Shown here: piece after piece, positions 3,232 to 17,030 of the stretch | How positions within the stretch are numbered: position 1 is the stretch's first letter | Layout: each line of letters opens with the position of its first letter | Assembly: GCA_049514315.1 (NCBI GenBank) | Contig: JBEKVD010000001.1 | Location: 4,380 to 68,379, forward strand | DNA: 64,000 nt | Direction: 5' to 3' | Source: Candidatus Limnocylindrales bacterium | GTDB lineage: Bacteria > Chloroflexota > Limnocylindria > Limnocylindrales > CSP1-4 | Translations under genes and position numbers: made by a program | The notes under the pieces: model-generated | What the model saw: the letters and a program-made list of their open reading frames with translations, nothing else | Told to the model about the DNA's origin: nothing | Databases searched by the model: none

Positions 3232-3849
3232 TTGCCTTTGTTCGGACAGCCAAACGTCGAGAAGCTCTCGGCCAGGGAAGACACCCTGGAGCTGATCAAA
3301 GCGCTGGCGTATCCGAAGCACTGGCGTGTCCGTCGGGACGCTGCCGAGGCTCTCGGGCAGCTCGGCAATCCCGACGCCGTTGGGCCCCTGATTGTCGCCC
3401 TCAAAGATGACACCTCGAGCGTGCGCCGGGCGGCTGCCGAGGCTCTCGGCCGGCTCCGCGACGCCCGTGCCGTGGAGCCGCTCATCACCGCGCTGAGGAG
3501 TCCCGCCGCGGATGTCCGACAGGCGGCTGCCGAGGCCCTCGGCGAGATTCGGGATGCCCGGGCCGTCCCATCGCTCGAAGCCGCTCTCAGGGTCGAGAGC
3601 TGGAGCATGCGCCGGGCTGCTGCCGAGGCTCTCGGCCGGATCGGCGATGCCGGCGCACTCGAGGCGCTCACGGCCACTCTCGAAGATCCCGACTCGAACG
3701 TGCGCCGGGCCGCCGCCGATGCGCTTGCGGCTCTCGGCCGGCAGCCCGGTGCAGCAGGGGCCCGAAGTCAGCCTCGAACGGCCGCTGCGAAGGCCCGGCG
3801 AGGGACCACCCAGGGTCCCCGCCGACGGGGATCTACCGAGCTCCGGTAG
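3232..3849 (+). CDS. HEAT-repeat (PBS-lyase HEAT-like repeat) protein
   Basis: A ~31-aa unit is repeated 5-6 times (VRRAAAEALGRLRDARAVEPLITALRS / VRQAAAEALGEIRDARAVPSLEAALR ...). An AAGGAGG RBS lies ~8 nt upstream of a TTG start at 3232. Confidence 0.7.
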   Translation: MPLFGQPNVEKLSAREDTLELIKALAYPKHWRVRRDAAEALGQLGNPDAVGPLIVALKDDTSSVRRAAAEALGRLRDARAVEPLITALRSPAADVRQAAAEALGEIRDARAVPSLEAALRVESWSMRRAAAEALGRIGDAGALEALTATLEDPDSNVRRAAADALAALGRQPGAAGARSQPRTAAAKARRGTTQGPRRRGSTELR

Positions 3850-3915
3850 GCGGGCGCCCTCCGGCCCGGTCCGCGTGGCGTCAGCTCGTGCCGGGGCAGT
3901 CGACGCTGCCCGCGT

Positions 3916-5439
3916 CTATTCGAGAAGCCCAACCTCGGCCTCGACGGCGTCGAGAATCTCGCCCGACCGGACGAGCTCCTTCATCAGGTTGTGATCGGGG
4001 TACAGCGGCCGATCCTCGTCGAGGTGGGCGACGTGCCGCCGCACGACGTCGCGCGCAACCGACACCCCCCGGCCGAAGGCGAAGTCGCGGAAGTCGAGCG
4101 CCTGGGCCGCGGCCATGAACTCGATGCCCAGCACCCCGTACGCGTTGTCGAGGATCTGGCCGTTCTTGATGGCAGTGTTCATGCCCATCGAGACGAAGTC
4201 CTCCTGGTCGGCCGCGGCCGGGATGGACTGGATCGAGGCGGGGGCCGACAGGATTCGCTGCTCGACGATCAGGTGGTCGGCGGTGTACTGGCTCAGCATC
4301 ATGCCGGAGAACATGCCGGCGCCCTTCGTCAGGAAGTCCGGCAGGCCCACGCTGAGGGCCGGGTTCGTCAGCCGGTTCAAGCGCCGCTCGGAGAGGACGC
4401 ACACCATCGTCACGGCGACGCCCACCATGTCCATCGGCAGAGCCACGGGGCTCCCCTGGAAGTTGGCCCCGGTAAGGGTCAGCCGGGCCTCGGGCAGGAA
4501 GATCGGGTTGTCCCCGACCCCGTTCAGCTCGATCTCGACCTGCCGACGCGCCCACTCGACTGCGTCGATTGCCGCCCCGATGACCTGGGGCGAGGAGCGC
4601 ATCGAGTAGGCGTCCTGGACCTTTGTCTTCATCTTCCCGGTGGCGAGGTCGCTGCCCTCGATGCAGCGCATGATCGCCTGCGCCGACTTGACGGCTCCCG
4701 GGAATCCCCGCAGCTCGTGGAGGCGCGTGTCGTAGGGCTTGAGGTTCGCGACTAGCGCCTCGAGCGACATCGCGCAGGCAATCTCGGCCTGCTTGAGCCA
4801 GCGCGAAATGTCGTAGAGATGGATCGCGCTCATGGCCGTGAGGAGATTCGAGCCGTTGATCGTGGCCAGGCCGTCGCGAGCATGCAGCCCCGGCACGGGG
4901 ATCCCCGCGCGCTCCATCGCCTCCCGCCCAGGCAGCCGTTCGCCGCGATAGAACGCCTCGCCCTCGCCCATCAGCAGGAGCGCGGCCTGGGCCATCGGGG
5001 CGAGGTCGCCGCTGGCGCCCACCGAACCCTTCTGGCAGACGACCGGTGTGACTCCGCGGTTCAGCATCTCCACGAGCGTGAGCGTGATCTCCGGCCGGCA
5101 TGCCGAGTGCCCCCGGGCATGGACGTTGATCCGACCCGCCAGCGCGCCGCGCACCGCCTCGACCGGCGCCGGGTCCCCTATCCCCGCCGCGTGGTTGTAA
5201 ATGAGGTACCGCTGGAACTCGCGGACCTGCTCGTCGGACAGGACGATCTCGGAGAACTCGCCGATGCCGGTATTCGTCCCGTACATGATCTCGTGGGCCG
5301 CGAGCTTCTCCTCGAGCATGCTACGGCAGACGAGGATTCGCTCGAGCGCGGTCGGATCGAGCGCAGCCTCCTCGCCGTCCCTGGCGATTCGGACGAGGCG
5401 GTCGATGGTCAGCGACGATCCGTCGAGGACGATGGTCAT
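3916..5439 (-). CDS. MIO-dependent ammonia-lyase (histidine ammonia-lyase / aromatic amino-acid lyase family, PF00221), 507 aa
   Basis: Full-length match to the HAL architecture. The Ala-Ser-Gly triad that autocatalytically forms the MIO cofactor is present (GSVGASGDLAPM). The N-terminus is HAL-like (MTIVLDGSSLTIDRLVRIARDGEEAALDP). The gene is on the same strand as the BMC operon and 103 bp downstream of it. Confidence 0.85.
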   Translation of the reverse strand: MTIVLDGSSLTIDRLVRIARDGEEAALDPTALERILVCRSMLEEKLAAHEIMYGTNTGIGEFSEIVLSDEQVREFQRYLIYNHAAGIGDPAPVEAVRGALAGRINVHARGHSACRPEITLTLVEMLNRGVTPVVCQKGSVGASGDLAPMAQAALLLMGEGEAFYRGERLPGREAMERAGIPVPGLHARDGLATINGSNLLTAMSAIHLYDISRWLKQAEIACAMSLEALVANLKPYDTRLHELRGFPGAVKSAQAIMRCIEGSDLATGKMKTKVQDAYSMRSSPQVIGAAIDAVEWARRQVEIELNGVGDNPIFLPEARLTLTGANFQGSPVALPMDMVGVAVTMVCVLSERRLNRLTNPALSVGLPDFLTKGAGMFSGMMLSQYTADHLIVEQRILSAPASIQSIPAAADQEDFVSMGMNTAIKNGQILDNAYGVLGIEFMAAAQALDFRDFAFGRGVSVARDVVRRHVAHLDEDRPLYPDHNLMKELVRSGEILDAVEAEVGLLE

Positions 5440-5542
5440 GGCCGATCACTCCTGTCGGTTCGAACCGCCCTGAGAATCGTGGCGACCCCCGATCAGTCGT
5501 TTGGGCGGCATCGGTGTTGTCAGTTGACGATGGTAGGCCTCC

Positions 5543-5845
5543 TCAGGCCGGGCCGCCTGGCTGGGCCTGAGGCGCCGGCTCTTCCTCGACTGCGTCGACG
5601 ATCCCGACCACGAGCGTCCGGATCGGCGCTCCGGGAGCGCTCAGCACCTGGCGGGCGGAGTTGCCCTCGTCGAGGAGCAGGACGGTTTCCCCGGCACCGG
5701 CGCCTACCGTGTCGACCGCGATCGTGTAGCCCCCGGTGGGCCGGCCGTCCGGGTCGAGGAGGTCGCACAGGAGCAGCGTCCGCTCGTCGAAGGCGGGGGC
5801 GTTGATCGTTGAGACGACCGTGCCGACGACGCGGCCGAGCTTCAT
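5543..5845 (-). CDS. BMC vertex pentamer protein (BMC-P; EutN/PduN/CcmL family)
   Basis: 100 aa. MKLGRVVGTVVST...LLLCDLLD...GGYTIAVDTVGAGAGETVLLLDEG is the PF03319 hallmark. It overlaps the upstream BMC-P stop by 4 bp. Confidence 0.8.
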   Translation of the reverse strand: MKLGRVVGTVVSTINAPAFDERTLLLCDLLDPDGRPTGGYTIAVDTVGAGAGETVLLLDEGNSARQVLSAPGAPIRTLVVGIVDAVEEEPAPQAQPGGPA

Positions 5846-6126
5846 GGCTCGACCTCCGGCGCTACCGTCAACGCGTCCACGATCCCAACGATCGCGTGGT
5901 CCACCGGGACGAACGGATCGGGCATCGCCTGGGCGGCCTCGCGAGCGGCGACGAAGTAGACGAGCTCGCCCGGGCCTGCCATGTGGATCGCATCGGCCGC
6001 GACCAGCTGGCCGCCGGCCGGCTTCAACGACCGGTCGAGCGGCTGGATGACCAGGAGCTTCACGCCCTCGAGACCCGGCGCCTTGACGGTGGCGACCACG
6101 GTCCCGGTCACGCGCGCGAGTTGCAT
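5842..6126 (-). CDS. BMC vertex pentamer protein (BMC-P), second paralog
   Basis: 94 aa. [30 protein letters not shown]...GGQLVAADAIHMAGPGELVYFVAAREA matches the EutN/PduN fold pattern. Confidence 0.8.
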   Translation of the reverse strand: MQLARVTGTVVATVKAPGLEGVKLLVIQPLDRSLKPAGGQLVAADAIHMAGPGELVYFVAAREAAQAMPDPFVPVDHAIVGIVDALTVAPEVEP

Positions 6127-6129
6127 CGC

Positions 6130-6759
6130 CTACCCTCCCGCCCCGGGAGGTGCGAGGGTGGCTCGGATCCGCGCCGCGAAGCGCGGGTCCGCGGCCAGGT
6201 TGTCGGCCATCTCGGGGTGGAGCTGAGGTATGACCCGAGCCAGGACGCCCACGATCCCGGCCAGGCGCCCCGTCCCGATCTCGACAGCTGCCTCAACATC
6301 CGAGACCGAACCATCGAACAGGAGATAGCCCTTCCCCCCGAGGTCGTCGGCGAGGCGCAGCTCGATCAGGCGGACCCGGGCGCCCTTCAGCCCGGCATCG
6401 GCGGCCTCGATGATCGCAGCCACCGTGCGCGTCTCGATGATCCCGATGGCCTCGCCGGCCGGCTCTCCGCGCCGCCCACGGATAGCGGCAACCACGTCGG
6501 GATGAACGTTCGGGAGGAAGAGGTCGCCGATCACGCACGCCCCGCCTGCCTCGCGACCGGCGGCCAGCGCCTCCTCGACGTCGCCGACCGAGCCACCGAC
6601 CAGGACCAGGTACTTGCCGGGGTGGACGGTGCCGGCGCGCAGGACCTCGATCGGGGCGCGTTTGGCCATCGCGTCGCCGGCCTCGATACCCGCGGCAATG
6701 GACTCGAGCTCGAGCAGCGCGACGGCCGGTTCGAGGGCAGGGCCGGTGTCCATCGTCAC
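6130..6759 (-). CDS. BMC-T shell protein with tandem BMC (PF00936) domains, PduT-like
   Basis: 209 aa with two BMC-domain cores: ALLELESIAAGIEAGDAMAKRAPIEVL... and AIGIIETRTVAAIIEAADAGLKGARVRLIEL...GYLLFDGSVSDVEAAVEIG. Confidence 0.75.
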   Translation of the reverse strand: MTMDTGPALEPAVALLELESIAAGIEAGDAMAKRAPIEVLRAGTVHPGKYLVLVGGSVGDVEEALAAGREAGGACVIGDLFLPNVHPDVVAAIRGRRGEPAGEAIGIIETRTVAAIIEAADAGLKGARVRLIELRLADDLGGKGYLLFDGSVSDVEAAVEIGTGRLAGIVGVLARVIPQLHPEMADNLAADPRFAARIRATLAPPGAGG

Positions 6760-8219
6760 ACGATCCGCAACGCGCCGACGACGGTGATCCTCCGCTCGCG
6801 CGAGAAGGTCCGCGGCCGGGTCAGGCCATCACCCGAGGGGCTGGCGATAGAGAACGAGGTGAAGCCCTCGCCGCCCTCGCCGAGGCCGGCGAAGTTGGGC
6901 CCGTTCGTCACGAAGATGCTGCAGTTCATTGCTCGGGCCATCTTCGTGATCGTGTCGACGTTCGTGGAGTGGATGGAGGCAGTGTGGCGGAAACCGTGCT
7001 CGACGCGGACGGCCAGGTCGATGGCCGCCTCGACGGTGCCCACCCGCACGATCGGGAGCAGAGGCATCATCTGTTCGGTCCAGACCAGGCTGTGGTCGCG
7101 CGGCACGTCCGCGATGAGTAAGCGGGGCTCGGGATCGGCCTGGACGCCGATCTCGGCGAGCATCTTCGCCGCGTCCTGGCCGATCCAGGCCGGGTTCATG
7201 ACGCCGGGCTTCCCGGGCTGGCCGGGCTCCGCGAAGACCACTCGTTCGAGCCGGCGCAACTCGTGTTCCTTGAGCAGGTAGGCGCCGTTCCGGGTCATCG
7301 CCCGGATCAGCCGATCGGCGACGGTGTCGACGACGATGACGACCTTCTCGTCGATGCAGACGAGGTTGTTGTCGAACGAGGCGCCGCGGACGATATCGCG
7401 GCCCGCGCGCTCGAGATCTGCGGTCCCGTCCACGACGGCCGGCGGGTTGCCGGGACCCGCCGTTACCGCTCGTTTGTCGGTCTTGAGCGCCTCGCGGACG
7501 ACCGCGCCCCCGCCGGTGACCAGCAGGACGCGGACGCCCGGGTGCGACATAAGGGCGCGTGCGCTCTCGAGAGTCGGGTTGGCGGCGGCCGAGGCCAGAT
7601 TCGGAGGCCCGCCGGCACCGACGATCGCCCGATTGATGAGCCGCACGGTCTCCGCTGAGCAGCGCCTTGCGCTCGGGTGGGCGTTGAAGACGACGGCGTT
7701 GCCGGCCGAGACGATGCTGATCGTGTTGTTGATGATCGTGGAGGTCGGGTTCGTTACCGGCGTGAGCGCGGCGACGACGCCAAACGGGGCGAACTCGGTG
7801 ACCATCATGCCCGCGTCGCCGGTGACGGCCTGGACTTCCAGGTCCTCCGGGCCCGGTGCCTTTGAGGCGACCAGCCGGTTCTTCACGACCTTGTCCTCGA
7901 CCCGACCGAGGTGCGTTTCCTGGTGGGCCATCCGGGCCAGCTGTTCGGCGTGGTCCAGCATTGAACGGCGAACTGCCTCGATGATGACCTTGCGACCGGC
8001 CAGGCCCTGGACCTGGAACTCGTTGAAGGCACGTGTGGCCGCGGCCACGGCATCGTCGATCGTGGCGTGGATGCCGTCGCCCAGCTCGACGGCCGCGGCA
8101 GTCGCCAGCTCCGCCTCGGCCCGGAGGCCCTCACCCGGCCGCGCGTCCCCGGCCGCCGCCACTCGGCGGCGGACCCGCTCGATGATCTCGGAGATCTCGC
8201 GCTCGTCTAGCTCGCTCAT
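6756..8219 (-). CDS. CoA-acylating aldehyde dehydrogenase (PduP/EutE-like) with N-terminal encapsulation peptide
   Basis: 487 aa. The aldehyde-dehydrogenase core contains the catalytic Cys (FDNNLVCIDEK) and a Rossmann GxGxxG-like segment. The N-terminal amphipathic helix EREISEIIERVRRRV followed by an Ala/Gly linker is a classic BMC encapsulation peptide. Confidence 0.85.
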   Translation of the reverse strand: MSELDEREISEIIERVRRRVAAAGDARPGEGLRAEAELATAAAVELGDGIHATIDDAVAAATRAFNEFQVQGLAGRKVIIEAVRRSMLDHAEQLARMAHQETHLGRVEDKVVKNRLVASKAPGPEDLEVQAVTGDAGMMVTEFAPFGVVAALTPVTNPTSTIINNTISIVSAGNAVVFNAHPSARRCSAETVRLINRAIVGAGGPPNLASAAANPTLESARALMSHPGVRVLLVTGGGAVVREALKTDKRAVTAGPGNPPAVVDGTADLERAGRDIVRGASFDNNLVCIDEKVVIVVDTVADRLIRAMTRNGAYLLKEHELRRLERVVFAEPGQPGKPGVMNPAWIGQDAAKMLAEIGVQADPEPRLLIADVPRDHSLVWTEQMMPLLPIVRVGTVEAAIDLAVRVEHGFRHTASIHSTNVDTITKMARAMNCSIFVTNGPNFAGLGEGGEGFTSFSIASPSGDGLTRPRTFSRERRITVVGALRIV

Positions 8220-8231
8220 CGCCCTGGCCCG

Positions 8232-8519
8232 CTACTTGCGGTAAACCTCCGTCCCGCCGATCTCCCATGTGTCCACGATCGCCATGATCACGGCGTCGCA
8301 GGGCCGGTCGCGCGTCGTCTCCGTCTGGCGAGCGGAGCTGCCGGTGGCGTAGAGGACGACCTCGCCGACACCCGCACCGACCACGTCGGCGGCCACCACG
8401 TAACCTCCGGCCTCGCGGTTCTCTGCGTCGAGCTGGCGCACGACAAGGAGCTTCCAGCCTTCCATCAGCGGCTCTTTGCGGCTCGCGACCACGGTTCCGG
8501 TCACCCGTCCAAGGAGCAT
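8232..8519 (-). CDS. BMC vertex pentamer protein (BMC-P), third paralog
   Basis: The likely start is the internal ATG giving [31 protein letters not shown]...[23 protein letters not shown] (EutN/PduN). The longer 115-aa ORF has an Arg-rich leader that is unlikely to be translated. Confidence 0.75.
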
Positions 8520-8583
8520 CTCGTCACCGCCTGCTTCAGGGGAGCGCGCGCGCCGGCAATACGCCGGCGCGCGCCACAAGCTG

Positions 8584-8892
8584 CTAGTCCTGCTTGCTCT
8601 CGGCCTTGGCCTCCTTGAGTCGCCCGAGCGGCAGAACGAGGTCGACGTTGACGTGCGGCCGGGCGATCACGTGGCTGGCGACGACCTCGCCCACCTTCGC
8701 GGCGTTTCGGACGCCGGCATCGACCGCGGCCTTGACGGCGGCAACGTCGCCGCGAACCACGGCGGTCACGTACCCGCCGCCGGTCTTCTCGTAGCTGACC
8801 AGCTCCACCTTCGCCGCCTTGACCATCGCGTCGGCGGCCTCGACCACCGCCGCGAACCCGCGGGCTTCGATCATCCCAAGCGCTTCTGCCAT
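8584..8892 (-). CDS. BMC-H hexamer shell protein (PduA/EutM/CcmK-like)
   Basis: 102 aa. [60 protein letters not shown] is the canonical single BMC domain. Confidence 0.85.
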
Positions 8893-8962
8893 CGACCGTG
8901 TCTCCTTCTCGTGCGGCTACTCGACCCCGCGGTCGCCGCCGCCGCTGCACTGAGTCCTGCGC

Positions 8963-9578
8963 CTAAGCCTTCGCTTCGCGTCCTTCGAGTCCCTCGATCG
9001 CCGCCAGCGCAGCGCGCCAGCCGACGTCGATGTCACGCTCCTCGCCACCGAGGTAGATGCGGCCCATCGAGCCGAAGGCCCGCACTTCGAGGATGTTGAT
9101 GTGAGCTGCCTTCTCCGCCTCGTTGGCCGCGAGCGCGGCGTAGGCGGCGGGTTCGAGCTCCAGCACGTAGAGCGTCTGGCCGGGGATCAGCATCTGGCCG
9201 TGACGCGTCCGGTTGATGAGCTGGGCCTGGTGGTCGTCGATCCGGCGGATGATCTGCGAGGACAGGACGCGCGGCTTGATCCGGTCGGTTTCGGCCAGGC
9301 CAATCTCGGCGAGGATCGCGCCGCCGGCGGCGCGGACCTCGGCCTGCGACGGCGAGTGGATCTCGAGCATGCCGTAGTAACGCTCGATGATCTGCATGCC
9401 GGGCTTGACGGTCGTCGACTTGAGGGCGATATCGGTCAGCCGGTTGATCTCGATGCCGGGCGAGACCTCGACCGAGAGCGAGGCGTCGCCGGCGAGCGGC
9501 AGGAATCCCTGCGCGACCGTCCCCAGGAAGGCGGCGTACTGGGCCTGGAGGCTATCCAGGAAGACGTAGGCTCGAAGG

Positions 9579-9592
<14 letters not shown>
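8963..9592 (-). CDS. BMC-T shell protein, circularly permuted tandem BMC domains (EutL/PduB-like)
   Basis: 209 aa. The C-terminal segment [45 protein letters not shown] parallels the EutL permuted-domain stretch (AYLVAPPLEATYGIDAALK...). The length and position inside the shell-gene block support the call. Confidence 0.6.
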
Positions 9593-10462
<870 letters not shown>

Positions 10463-10466
<4 letters not shown>

Positions 10467-11095
10467 CCTCGAACCTCTCCGGCCGGAGCCATGTAACGGC
10501 GCTCGATCGCCGTGATCTTCTCGACCCGCGCGGCGTGGCGCCCCGGGGCCCAGTCCGTGCCGAGCCAGGCTCGCACGATCTCGATGGCCAGGCCCTCACC
10601 GACGAAGCGGGCGCCGAGGGTGAGGACGTTGGCGTGGTTGTGCTCGCGGCTGTTGCGGGCGCTCGAGAGGTCGTGGCAGAGGGCGGCCCGGACGCCCGGC
10701 ACCTTGTTGGCGACCATGCACGAACCGATACCGGCGCCGTCCAGGATGATTCCCCAGCGGCAGGTCCCGTCGGCCACGAGGCGGGCAACGGCGTGGGCGA
10801 TGTCGGGATAGTCCACGGGATCGCTGCCGTGCGTGCCGCAGTCGCGGACCTCGAAGCCGGTCTCGGTCAGCATCTGGCCGATCCGATCCTTGAGTGCGGA
10901 GCCGCCGTGGTCGGCGCCGATGGCAATGGCGACGCGTTCCGAACCGGCCGGGGCGACTCCAGCGGCCGCAACCGCCCCCGGCATGTTCGCCGGGGATGCA
11001 GTCGCGTCGGCGGCGAGCGTGGCGTCGACGATCCGGCGCACGATGTCGCGGACCTCGTTTTCGGACGGTGAAGCGGGACCGCGCATGTCACGCAT
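10463..11095 (-). CDS. rpiB: Ribose-5-phosphate isomerase B (RpiB/LacAB family) with ~60-aa N-terminal extension (encapsulation-peptide-like)
   Basis: Core [12 protein letters not shown]...[15 protein letters not shown]...[18 protein letters not shown] matches RpiB. The N-terminal helix [17 protein letters not shown] is followed by an Ala/Pro linker. The gene overlaps deoC by 4 bp. Confidence 0.85.
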
Positions 11096-12083
11096 GGTCG
11101 AGAACCCAGTCCGCGGTCGCCTCGTCGGTCACCATCACGTTGACGCAGCCCGACCGCAGGGCGGCAAGCGCAATCGGGCCCCTTCCCGGGCCGGCGGCGA
11201 CGCCCACCGCAAGAGCCTTCGCGCCGAGCTCCTCCAGCGGCAGGCCGATCGTCCGGCGGTCGAGCGACGGGAGGGCGATGCGACCGTCCAACGATAGGAA
11301 CCGCCCCAGGACGTCGCCCACCGCACCGGCCTCAGCGAGCGCGGCGAGCTCCGGGTCGCCGATGAAGCCGGACGCGACGTGGACGCTGTCCGGACCCATG
11401 ACGCCCATGCCGAAGACGGCGGTCTGGGCAGAGCGCGCGGCCGCGAGCGTCTGCCCGACGGACGGGTCTTTCTCGAGCGCCTCTCGAAGCTCGGGCGAGC
11501 CGACGATCGCGGGCGCCGCCATCATGCGGATCGCGGCTCCGGTCGTGAGCCCGAACTGCTCCACGACCTCCTGGGCCCGGGTCGGGCGGGCCGAGCGGGA
11601 CATCGCGCCGTTCAGCTGCACGATCTCGGACGCGGCCGTCCAGCCCGGGCGAAGATGTGCGGCGAGCTGGAGCATCGTGCGCCCCCACGAAACGCCTATC
11701 GCGCCCGCCGGCCGAAGCGAGGTCAGGTGGGCGGCGGCGGCACCGCCGACCCGCTCGCGGGCGAGGAGTTCCTGGTCGACGGCCGAAGCGGTCGGCGGCA
11801 CGTCGACGACGACCGCGCTCCGCAGGCCAAAGCGGCCGACCAGGCTGTCCTCGAGCTGTACCAGCCGGGCCGCGGGATGGACGATTTCGATGCGGACGGC
11901 CGACTCGCGCAGGGCGCGGTCCAGGAGGCGGCCGACCTTGAACCTGCTGACACCAAGGCGCTCGCCGACCTGATCCTGGGTCAGATTGAGCCGGTAATAG
12001 AGCTGGGCGGCGCGAAGCATCAGCCGGGTTTCCAGCCCGAGCTCGTCCTGGCGAAGGATAGCGGCGCCGGCGGGCATGCTCAA
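11088..12083 (-). CDS. SorC/DeoR-family sugar-phosphate-binding transcriptional regulator
   Basis: N-terminal HTH (LRAAQLYYRLNLTQDQVGERLGVSRFKVGRLLDRA), followed by a CggR/SorC-type sugar-binding domain. It is the first gene of the BMC operon and overlaps rpiB by 8 bp. Confidence 0.8.
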   Translation of the reverse strand: MSMPAGAAILRQDELGLETRLMLRAAQLYYRLNLTQDQVGERLGVSRFKVGRLLDRALRESAVRIEIVHPAARLVQLEDSLVGRFGLRSAVVVDVPPTASAVDQELLARERVGGAAAAHLTSLRPAGAIGVSWGRTMLQLAAHLRPGWTAASEIVQLNGAMSRSARPTRAQEVVEQFGLTTGAAIRMMAAPAIVGSPELREALEKDPSVGQTLAAARSAQTAVFGMGVMGPDSVHVASGFIGDPELAALAEAGAVGDVLGRFLSLDGRIALPSLDRRTIGLPLEELGAKALAVGVAAGPGRGPIALAALRSGCVNVMVTDEATADWVLDHA

Positions 12084-12243
12084 ATGTGCATATCTCTGCT
12101 CATATGTACAAGGCTACGCGCCCGACGACGGAGCTGTCAAGATACCTGGACTTGCCGTATTAACGGGCGTGCCGGTGCTCACGAGAGGGCCGGGCACGAG
12201 CGGTGCCGCTCCACCCGGCGACGCTTCCGGGCGGCGCCCGTTG

Positions 12244-13263
12244 TCAGACGGGTTCGACTCGCCGTCGCCCGCCGGATTCGACGACCGTCGTCGGCGCATT
12301 GTGCACCGCGGTGGTGGCGGGGATCGTGCCGAGCCGGCCGGCCTGGTAGTCGGCGAATGCCTGGACGACCTCGTCGCGCGTGTTCATCACGAACGGTCCC
12401 ATCCATGCGACGGGCTCTCGTATCGGTCGGCCGCCGAGGATGAGCAGATCGAGGTTCGGGCTGCGACTGTCCTGTGGCTGCAGCGCCGCGACCGTGAGCG
12501 CGTCGCCGGGTCCAAGGACTGCGAGCTGTCCGGTCCCGATCGGTCGTGCCTCCGCGCCGACGTTCCCATGGCCGGCCATTGCGTAGACGAGCGCGTTGTA
12601 GTCGGCCCGCCAGGGCAGCGACATGCGCGCCCCTGGGCTGAGGGTCGCGTGGACGAGCGTCATCGGCGTGTAGGTCGAGCCGGGCCCCCTGTGCCCGGCG
12701 ACCTCACCGGCGATGATCCGGACGAGCGCTCCGCCATCGGCTGAGCATGCGACCTCCACTTCCCGGGCCCGCAGGTCCTGGTAGCGCGGTGCAGCCCACT
12801 TCTGGGCGCGCGGAAGGTTCACCCAGAGCTGGAAGCCGTGGAAGAGCCCGCCGCTCACGACGAGCCATTCCGGCGGCTTCTCGATGTGCAGGATGCCGGA
12901 ACCCGCGGTCATCCACTGCGTGTCGCCGTTGGTGATCACTCCGCCGCCGCCGTTCGAGTCCGAATGCTCGAACGTCCCGTCGATCATGTACGTCACCGTC
13001 TCGAAGCCCCGGTGCGGGTGCCAGGGTGTCCCCTTCGGTTCGCCCGGGGCGTACTCGACTTCGCCCATCTGGTCCAGGTGAACGAAGGGGTCCAGGTCGC
13101 CGAGATCGACGCCGGCGAATGCTCGCCGGACGGGAAAGCCCTCCCCCTCGAGCCCACGCGGTGCGGTCGTCACGCTGCGCACGGCGCGCACCCGGGCGAT
13201 CGTTGAGTCGGGCTCCGGGATTCGGGGCAGGACGGTGATGTCTGGGACCGTGATCGCGGGCAT
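12244..13263 (-). CDS. Pirin-family bicupin protein
   Basis: Contains ...VEYAPGEPKGTPWHPHRGFETVTYMIDGTFEHSDSNGGGG...GDTQWMTAGSGILHIE (pirin metal-binding HxH...H...E region). The likely start is MPAITVP. The Arg-rich 5' part of the ORF is unlikely to be coding. Confidence 0.8.
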   Translation of the reverse strand: MPAITVPDITVLPRIPEPDSTIARVRAVRSVTTAPRGLEGEGFPVRRAFAGVDLGDLDPFVHLDQMGEVEYAPGEPKGTPWHPHRGFETVTYMIDGTFEHSDSNGGGGVITNGDTQWMTAGSGILHIEKPPEWLVVSGGLFHGFQLWVNLPRAQKWAAPRYQDLRAREVEVACSADGGALVRIIAGEVAGHRGPGSTYTPMTLVHATLSPGARMSLPWRADYNALVYAMAGHGNVGAEARPIGTGQLAVLGPGDALTVAALQPQDSRSPNLDLLILGGRPIREPVAWMGPFVMNTRDEVVQAFADYQAGRLGTIPATTAVHNAPTTVVESGGRRRVEPV

Positions 13264-13506
13264 GGAAACGTTCCTCGTCGGCCTGGCGCCGGGCTCTTCA
13301 AGGCGCTCGGCTACCCGATGATGGCGTCGTTTCCGGGGAAGCGGGCTGCGCGCGCGGCCAGCACCGCCTGGTGGTGCGGGGGCACGCACGAGATCAGCGA
13401 GCCGGCGCTGCCGGCCACCGGTCTGCCGGCGGGCCATCTGAGGCAGTCGGCCAGTCGACGCGAGTGGGACGGGGATCATCGCCTCCAATGCCCCGGGCGC
13501 TCGGTG

Positions 13507-13707
13507 TTACTCGTTCGCGTTCGGCGGCTTGGGCGCCCGGCCGGAGGGCACTCTTCTGGCGCGCTTGACCTGCGTATCGAGAACCTGCTTGAACTGCTTG
13601 GCCAGGCCGGTCTTCATGCCGGCACGCGCCGCGGCGTCCGCATCTCGATCGCGGCGCTTTGAACGCGCCGCCTCCGCGGGCCGAAGTTCGTCTTCGTGGT
13701 CGTCCAT
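13507..13707 (-). CDS. small basic hypothetical protein (~66 aa)
   Basis: MDDHEDELRPAEAARSKRRDRDADAAARAGMKTGLAKQFKQVLDTQVKRARRVPSGRAPKPPNANE. Codon usage is reasonable. No family is recognised. Confidence 0.3.
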   Translation of the reverse strand: MDDHEDELRPAEAARSKRRDRDADAAARAGMKTGLAKQFKQVLDTQVKRARRVPSGRAPKPPNANE

Positions 13708-14142: not shown

Positions 14143-15018
14143 ATGCGAGTACGTAAGGCGGTCTTCCCGGCCGCGGGATGGGGGACCCGCTTCCTCCCCG
14201 CCACCAAGGCACAACCGAAGGAGATGCTCCCGCTCGTTGACAAGCCGGTCATCCAGTACGCTGTCGAAGAGGCGGTCGAGGCCGGCATCGAGCAGGTCAT
14301 CATCGTTACCAGCAGCCAGAAGCGGGCGATCGAGGATCACTTCGATCTGAGCCTCGAGTTGGAGCAGCTCCTGGAGTCGCGCGGCGAGATCGAAAAGCTG
14401 CGCCAGATACGAGCCATCTCAGATCTGGCCCAGGTCTCTTACGTCCGCCAGAAGGAACAGCTGGGCCTCGGCCACGCCGTCCTTGTGGCCAAGGAACTGG
14501 TGGGCCACGAGCCTTTCGCGGTCATCCTCTCCGACGACGTGGTCATCGGCGAGCGGCCCTGCATCGGGCAGCTGATCCATGCCTACGAACGGACCCATTC
14601 GTCGATCGTGGCGGTCATGGAGGTGCCCCCCGAGGACACCAGTCGATACGGCGTCATAGCCGGTGAGGTTGCAGGCCCGGACGATCCGCGGCTCTACAGG
14701 CTCTCGGGCCTGGTCGAGAAGCCGGAGCCGGGGGCGGCACCGTCGAATCTGGCCATCATCGGCCGCTACGTCCTCACTCCGAAGATCTTCGAGAAGCTCG
14801 AGCAGACCCAGCGCGGAGCCGGCGGTGAGATTCAGCTGACGGACGCGATCGAGGCCCTGATGCAGGAGCAGGACGTCTACGGCTATGCCTTCGATGGGGT
14901 GAGATACGATGCCGGGACCACGATGGGCTGGCTCAAAGCGTCTGTAGAGCTGGCTCTCCAGAGAGAGGACATCGGAGGTCAGTTCCGACGGTACTTGCAG
15001 ACGCTCGACCTGAGCTGA
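14143..15018 (+). CDS. galU: UTP--glucose-1-phosphate uridylyltransferase
   Basis: The N-terminal nucleotidyltransferase motif AVFPAAGWGTRFLPATKAQPKEMLPLVDKPVIQY is diagnostic of GalU. 291 aa. Confidence 0.9.
   Translation: MRVRKAVFPAAGWGTRFLPATKAQPKEMLPLVDKPVIQYAVEEAVEAGIEQVIIVTSSQKRAIEDHFDLSLELEQLLESRGEIEKLRQIRAISDLAQVSYVRQKEQLGLGHAVLVAKELVGHEPFAVILSDDVVIGERPCIGQLIHAYERTHSSIVAVMEVPPEDTSRYGVIAGEVAGPDDPRLYRLSGLVEKPEPGAAPSNLAIIGRYVLTPKIFEKLEQTQRGAGGEIQLTDAIEALMQEQDVYGYAFDGVRYDAGTTMGWLKASVELALQREDIGGQFRRYLQTLDLS

Positions 15019-15104: not shown

Positions 15105-17030
<1,926 letters not shown>

Follow-up and report, generated by a model that had tools for sequence, protein, structure and literature searches.

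A hutH-type ammonia-lyase gene 103 bp behind a sugar-phosphate-utilisation microcompartment operon probably adjoins it without belonging to it

The stretch of DNA analysed here (the window) comprises 64,000 nucleotides of contig JBEKVD010000001.1 from a Candidatus Limnocylindrales bacterium (GenBank assembly GCA_049514315.1) with a G+C content of approximately 69%, and it carries on its minus strand a bacterial microcompartment (BMC) operon followed by a gene for an ammonia-lyase, here called hutH on grounds given below. The lyase open reading frame (ORF) at 3916–5439 (minus strand) encodes 507 amino acids. Its match to the PF00221 Lyase_aromatic family spanned residues 10–452 and profile positions 1–448 of 466 with E = 1.5e-156 and is therefore far beyond chance, and the Ala-Ser-Gly triad of the 4-methylideneimidazol-5-one (MIO) type was intact at A142-S143-G144 in GSVGASGDLAP. 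The start of hutH is separated from the last pentamer gene of the BMC operon (5543–5845) by exactly 103 bp (5440–5542), with a Shine-Dalgarno motif, AGGAG, 9 nt ahead of the ATG. Neither a sigma-70-like promoter nor an intrinsic terminator was scored in this gap by a simple consensus scan, and an Rfam search of 3700–5800 with E-values up to 1 gave no match. On the other side of hutH, a convergent HEAT-repeat protein gene on the plus strand (3232–3849; an ORF with HEAT-repeat lyase-like NCBIfam matches) bounds the hutH transcription unit; it was not kept downstream of hutH in any relative compared. HutU, FtcD and HutI of a related genome had no tblastn match anywhere in the 64-kb window. An earlier sequence-only reading of this DNA had described a full-length MIO-type lyase with an intact triad, on the same strand as the last pentamer gene and 103 bp past it, with no obvious terminator in between, a convergent gene downstream and no other hut genes nearby, and all of these points held. 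A short GC hairpin without a T-run (GGGCAG-CGTCGA-CTGCCC, 3894–3911, minus strand) was also seen 5 nt past the hutH stop codon, within the 66-bp space between hutH and the HEAT-repeat gene, and could be a bidirectional terminator.

The neighbouring operon, all on the minus strand, begins with a DeoR/SorC-type sugar-binding regulator (11088–12083; PF04198, and the NCBIfam DeoR repressor model at E = 6e-62, below its cut-off). An RpiB ribose-5-phosphate isomerase (10463–11095) and a DeoC-type aldolase (9579–10466) follow, matched by PF02502 at residues 57–194 only and by PF01791 at residues 78–282 only, respectively, and carrying N-terminal extensions of approximately 56 and 75 amino acids with helices that resemble encapsulation peptides (EPs). 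Next come a double-stacking, CsoS1D/CcmP-like BMC-T protein (8963–9592; PF27545 CsoS1D_N precomputed for an identical protein, no match in our own Pfam scan), a BMC-H hexamer shell protein (8584–8892; PF00936, E = 1.5e-29) and a BMC-P pentamer (8232–8519; PF03319, E = 2e-29; a 95-amino-acid gene call from the Joint Genome Institute, JGI). The operon ends with an acylating aldehyde dehydrogenase (AldDH; 6756–8219; PF00171) that starts with the EP-like helix EISEIIERVRRRVAAA, a tandem-domain BMC-T shell protein (6130–6759; two PF00936 domains in two matched stretches, E = 1e-34), a second BMC-P pentamer (5842–6126; PF03319, E = 3e-25) and, as its final gene, a BMC-P pentamer of the EutN/CcmL family (5543–5845; PF03319, E = 7e-24).

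By description, and with shell-clade assignments set aside, this gene content fits a sugar-phosphate-utilisation (SPU) BMC of the SPU3 type. The parts of Sutter et al. (2021; PMC8217296) that we consulted give SPU3 an AldDH together with a PF01791 DeoC and a PF02502 RpiB, a BMC-P triplet, BMC-H, BMC-Tdp and BMC-Ts proteins without PduS, and EP-like N-terminal helices on AldDH and DeoC, as in the window. They also describe a broad phylum range for SPU3, covering Chloroflexi, Actinobacteria and Acidobacteria. The Chloroflexi-specific SPU6 type, which had first been assumed because the organism is a member of the Chloroflexi, was rejected, as the locus lacks the EutQ-like 130-amino-acid protein and contains a tandem BMC-T in addition. 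A PF00221 enzyme goes unmentioned in the descriptions of SPU3 to SPU7 in the consulted parts of the same paper, ethanolamine ammonia-lyase was the sole ammonia-lyase found in its supplementary files, and a literature search found no paper tying histidine ammonia-lyase (HAL) to microcompartments, the co-mention that was found being unrelated. The earlier statement that ammonia-lyases lie outside the described SPU loci thus agrees with these sources as far as they were consulted.

The two NCBIfam models that scored best against the lyase were both HAL models, NF006871 with 522.2 bits and TIGR01225 (hutH) with 490.7 bits, in each case narrowly under the cut-off (524 for the NF006871 subfamily and 539.15 for the TIGR01225 equivalog). 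Models for the tyrosine and phenylalanine aminomutases (TAM, PAM) and the tyrosine and phenylalanine ammonia-lyases (TAL, PAL) reached 150–352 bits, i.e. 140–330 bits under the HAL models (491–522 bits), and the PAL, TAL and aminomutase models stayed far under their own cut-offs (tyrosine 2,3-aminomutase 352 against 501, PAL 194 against 519). The best match in the PDB was the HAL of Pseudomonas putida (1GKM, E = 1e-84), whose specificity and catalytic residues we take to be Y53, H83, N195, Q277, Y280, R283, F329 and E414. Window residues Y53, H83, N195, Q275, Y278, R281, F327 and E413 were identical to the aligned residues of 1GKM, so that the Q, Y and R of KVQDxYSxR, the F of GxNF and the E of NQED are all kept. 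His83 and the NQED Glu separate HAL from PAL and TAL, which have Leu and Gln at these positions. The window lyase further resembles the P. putida enzyme (1B8F, 1GKM; EC 4.3.1.3) in its full-length PF00221 match, its Ala-Ser-Gly at 142–144, its about equal length and its lack of extra domains. It differs in its sub-cut-off scores, in the unlinked hutU and hutI and in residue 82, the sole notable difference in sequence, which is Asn in the window and Ser in P. putida. With PAL, TAL and the aminomutases it shares the fold and the MIO cofactor motif.

A close ortholog with 85% identity was found in a Limnocylindrales metagenome-assembled genome (MAG; GCA_036392215.1, locus L011; L-numbers denote the loci of relatives compared with the window), where it sits in a hut cluster between hutU, 2.6 kb upstream of it, and ftcD and hutI, close downstream; all three score above their NCBIfam equivalog cut-offs. 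This ortholog itself exceeds the NF006871 cut-off, at 531.1 bits. Taken together, the profile scores, the active-site residues and this cluster indicate that the window lyase is most likely a hutH-type enzyme. HutH converts L-histidine to urocanate and NH3 by means of the autocatalytically formed MIO electrophile. Histidine is put forward as the probable substrate only, because of the sub-cut-off scores, Asn82 and the lack of hut partners nearby.

We then compared gene order from the side of the compartment. With AldDH as the query against one genome per species, 80 loci (L013–L092) with AldDH identities of 68–91% were collected, from MAGs labelled as Chloroflexota/Limnocylindria, Actinomycetota (Gaiellaceae, Acidimicrobiia) and Acidobacteriota. 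Based on tblastn with all window proteins, the gene order RpiB-DeoC-Tdp-H-P-AldDH-T-P-P was present in all 80 loci, barring cut-offs by short contigs. Loci with at least 1.7 kb of sequence past the last pentamer gene were considered informative, and 63 of the 80 qualified. A HAL homolog, at any coverage, was found in 0 of these 63 orthologous BMC loci from other species. The synteny comparison that the sequence-only reading had proposed thus had a clear outcome: HAL does not track with SPU loci. BMC-Tdp was 71–99% identical among the 80 loci, and this range, together with the identical gene order across phyla, is in keeping with a horizontal spread of the cassette as a whole. Only the Chloroflexota-like loci have the DeoR-type regulator. 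The nine-gene SPU3 order was also seen in one MAG labelled Gammaproteobacteria and one labelled Deferrimicrobiaceae.

From the side of the lyase, hundreds of homologs at 82–93% identity were found. The comparison drew on 80 metagenome HAL loci at 79–93% identity, 60 of them extending 800 bp or more upstream of HAL. BMC genes lay upstream of HAL in 2 of these 60 informative loci, L093 and L094 only, with HALs 93% identical and AldDHs 93–95% identical to those of the window. Adjacency to BMC genes was missing in at least seven relatives with HAL identities of 91–93%. Within 10 kb of HAL, no BMC genes were present in L010 (92%, 2.03-Mb contig), L173 (91%, 539 kb), L174 (91%, 130 kb), L175 (93%, 48 kb) or L176, and no pentamer genes were present upstream of HAL in L096 to L099 (91–92%). 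The exact window lyase occurred on seven JGI contigs; the six that were shown have the same arrangement and come from the same organism. Peat and fen samples (for example JGI 3300043294 and 3300043295) contain the window contig. The adjacency thus occurs in a single genus-level group, some of whose members lack it. A conserved partner downstream of HAL was likewise not found, the genes differing among the window, L093, L094, L010, L097, L098, L174 and L175. In a neighbor-joining tree of HALs, the window fell outside a group in which BMC-adjacent HALs (L093, L094) are intermingled with BMC-free ones (L097, L010), so that a single clade of BMC-adjacent HALs was not supported; with HAL differences of only 5–10%, the tree cannot tell a single origin followed by loss from a lack of resolution.

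The HAL clade as a whole appeared unusually conserved, with 79–85% identity across contigs of very different base composition, from AT-rich Anaerolineae-like to approximately 70% GC Limnocylindria-like, some of them named Anaerolineae or Limnocylindrales. Almost without exception, HAL genes of this clade stand alone, with no hut genes beside them. The conservation may reflect strong constraint, horizontal transfer or a role other than the canonical one.

On the minus strand, the 103-bp gap at 5440–5542 forms a block that aligned at approximately 80% column identity with the DNA upstream of HAL in seven relatives (L093, L094, L095, L010, L097, L098 and L099), independently of the presence of BMC genes and with a sharp 5' boundary just before GGAGGCCTACCAT. 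Relatives with identities of 90% or more keep this block, which begins with GGAGGCCTACCAT, ahead of hutH in any genomic context (for example L010 9887–10000, L097 1286–1397, L098 1299–1414 and L175 9897–10000). Since it travels with HAL into BMC-free surroundings, the gap is not a neutral spacer. HAL and its upstream neighbour are divergently oriented in L010/L173, L174 and L175, so that HAL must start its own transcript there. The block is the only upstream DNA that these divergent loci share, which would place the hutH promoter and leader within it. We infer that 5440–5542 probably holds the own promoter of hutH, its 5' leader and its Shine-Dalgarno sequence AGGAG; TACCAT at 5530–5535 fits a TANNNT −10 pattern. 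The sequence-only reading had named two findings that would speak against a link between the lyase and the compartment, namely absence of HAL beside orthologous BMC loci and a promoter or terminator mapped in the gap. The former is what the 63 loci gave; for the latter, a promoter in the gap is suggested by the conserved block. A conserved RNA structure in the block was considered and rejected, as RNAalifold on eight block sequences gave a covariation term of −0.44 kcal/mol with compensatory changes in 2 of 25 pairs. A GCCGCCC/GGGCGGT helix chosen by eye was broken in L098 and L099.

How the adjacency arose was addressed by comparing L175 with the window by blastn. Homology was confined to 16993–16540 (a Ser/Thr-kinase gene), 15580–13577 (the GalU region) and 5544–3927 (the HAL unit), and window 13577–5544, which contains the pirin gene, the DeoR-type regulator and the BMC operon, is replaced in L175 by 5.6 kb of unrelated DNA encoding a 1303-amino-acid fn3 protein and a DUF5666 protein, without BMC domains. 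Because L175 shares the GalU/kinase flank and HAL with the window and not what lies between them, 5544–13577 (minus strand) can be regarded as a variable cassette beside a resident hutH. Homology to every relative ends at the 3' end of HAL, which places the HAL unit between two rearrangement-prone junctions. An integration signature for the BMC cassette was sought and dropped: no meaningful direct or inverted repeats flank 5544 and 13577, the window contains a single copy of the AGGCCTACCAT motif, and no integrase was seen. Judged from these alignments, the cassette may have been inserted in the window lineage or may have been lost and replaced in the relatives, both histories being compatible with the data.

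The last pentamer gene ends 226 bp before hutH in L093 and 241 bp before it in L094, and the additional 120–140 bp between the pentamer stop codon and the hutH block in these two loci, which contain GC-rich hairpins, are missing in the window. A deletion of approximately 120–140 bp thus appears to have brought the pentamer ORF up to the hutH leader. The last BMC-P of the window was also found to have a lineage-specific C-terminal tail, …EEEPAPQAQPGGPA (5543–5590, compared with L093 9740–9774 and L094), and in L174 homology to the region upstream of HAL reaches approximately 14 nt into the window pentamer tail.

Encapsulation signals were judged against the enzymes of the same operon. At the N-termini of AldDH, DeoC and RpiB, a motif resembling an amphipathic helix (EISEIIERVRRRVAAA in AldDH) precedes a linker rich in Ala, Gly and Pro, and the Pfam domains of these enzymes start at residues 51, 78 and 57, respectively. 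N-terminal EPs have been reported for SPU3 in Supplementary Data 2 of PMC8217296, and the SPU3 description, in the parts consulted, mentions them on AldDH and the PF01791 aldolase only. The RpiB extension of approximately 56 amino acids in the window (10928–11095, minus strand), with an EP-like helix resembling those of AldDH and DeoC, is therefore a difference from that description. In HAL the domain begins at residue 10, and neither a terminal extension nor an EP-like helix is present. Its length of 507 amino acids and its termini correspond in BMC-adjacent and BMC-free relatives at 90% identity or more. By these sequence features, HAL is without an encapsulation signal and is predicted not to be encapsulated.

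We consider it likely, at a probability of about 0.83, that the lyase gene is an ordinary hutH with its own upstream control region, a neighbour and not a part of the SPU3-type BMC. Under this reading, a resident histidine ammonia-lyase from a strongly conserved Chloroflexota clade would form a self-contained unit, consisting of its ORF and some 100 nt that belong to it on the upstream side, amid very variable chromosomal surroundings. In a genus-level lineage, the SPU3 cassette (pirin, DeoR-type regulator, RpiB, DeoC, AldDH and six shell genes) would fill the variable slot upstream, by the presumed insertion or replacement outlined above, and a small deletion would have left no more than 103 bp between hutH and the last pentamer gene. 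The lyase would remain outside the compartment, its reaction feeding nothing to the aldehyde-handling core, and co-transcription, if any, would be incidental read-through and a recent accident of gene order. Several observations weigh against this reading. The lyase scores narrowly under both NCBIfam HAL cut-offs, it has Asn at residue 82, and hut partner genes are absent both from the window and from around the 80 metagenome HAL loci. No conserved −35 element was seen in the block, leaving the TANNNT-like hexamer as the sole promoter motif. The BMC-HAL pair is kept in three distinct lineages (window, L093 and L094) despite differing DNA downstream of HAL, which is mild evidence that the two may persist together. 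Finally, as the scan of the window picked up no terminator ahead of hutH, read-through from the BMC operon into hutH, and with it co-expression, is possible.

The last two of these observations, with the shared strand and the 103-bp gap, are also what speaks for functional recruitment, in which hutH would now be the terminal, co-transcribed gene of the BMC operon, co-induced during the scavenging of dead cells, with HAL remaining cytosolic. We regard this as unlikely, given that HAL is missing from 63 of 63 orthologous loci, that relatives with nearly the same HAL do without the adjacency, that the gap is an upstream block belonging to HAL whatever the context, that L093 and L094 have a wider gap with GC-rich hairpins after the pentamer gene, and that urocanate and NH3 are chemically unlinked to the acetaldehyde/acetyl-CoA core. 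Recruitment, if real, would amount to a small case of operon accretion and not to new compartment chemistry. Long odds also stand against a more specific version, in which the deletion put hutH 103 bp behind an SPU3 shell gene in a genus-level lineage, probably within Limnocylindria, and made the two one expression unit; this would represent an early stage in the growth of an operon, by which the breakdown of histidine, with its release of NH3, is coupled to that of deoxyribose-phosphate in cells feeding on dead biomass. That the lyase is encapsulated cargo, a new signature enzyme giving the compartment a nitrogen-related function, is strongly disfavoured. Physical adjacency to shell genes is the only point in its favour, and against it stand the wanting extension and helix in a protein of the same 507 amino acids as its BMC-free orthologs, the N-terminal helices that each of the three accepted cargo enzymes in this locus has, the lack of conservation of HAL with the BMC locus, and a reaction that yields no aldehyde. 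An enzyme other than a histidine lyase (an aromatic amino acid ammonia-lyase or aminomutase such as PAL, TAL or TAM, or a lyase acting on a histidine derivative, with a role outside hut) would account for the score under the hutH equivalog cut-off, for Asn82 in place of Ser82 and for most orthologs being without hut neighbours, and some close homologs are indeed named phenylalanine or aromatic ammonia-lyase in databases. The retained His83 and NQED Glu, the wide score difference to the TAM, PAM, TAL and PAL models and the 85% ortholog within a hutU-ftcD-hutI cluster make this quite improbable. The sequence-only reading had posed the choice between a passenger gene and an unanticipated nitrogen link. 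The passenger side is favoured by the 63 loci without HAL and by the context-independent block, and the nitrogen link found no support. It had also called the lyase the terminal gene of the operon and described it as attached there; the attachment stands for the physical adjacency, in a genus-level lineage only, and does not extend to a functional link.

An ammonia-releasing lyase that is genetically tied to shells is known in EutBC, which occurs in ethanolamine-utilisation (EUT) BMCs and in the 'EUT module' satellites of SPU3 and SPU6, according to the consulted parts of PMC8217296. EutBC differs from the window lyase in being an unrelated, B12-dependent radical enzyme that provides acetaldehyde for the AldDH core, whereas HAL gives urocanate. 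EutC also carries an EP and is accompanied by its own shell protein, EutL, and HAL has neither an EP nor a dedicated shell protein. No change to the functional model of SPU compartments (deoxyribose-phosphate to acetaldehyde to acetyl-CoA) is warranted. As a negative result, the locus illustrates that an enzyme gene may be an unrelated neighbour even at a distance of 103 bp from the last shell gene, which bears on the 'guilt by association' readings that are common for microcompartment loci. Three checks were decisive here: synteny compared in both directions, a spacer that travels with the gene, and encapsulation peptides judged against the true cargo of the locus.

Beyond the cassette, the Ser/Thr-kinase-like gene (15105–17030, plus strand) encodes a long C-terminal (Pro-Thr)n repeat tail, and together with the adjoining GalU gene (14143–15018) it forms a conserved flank common to L175, L093 and L094.

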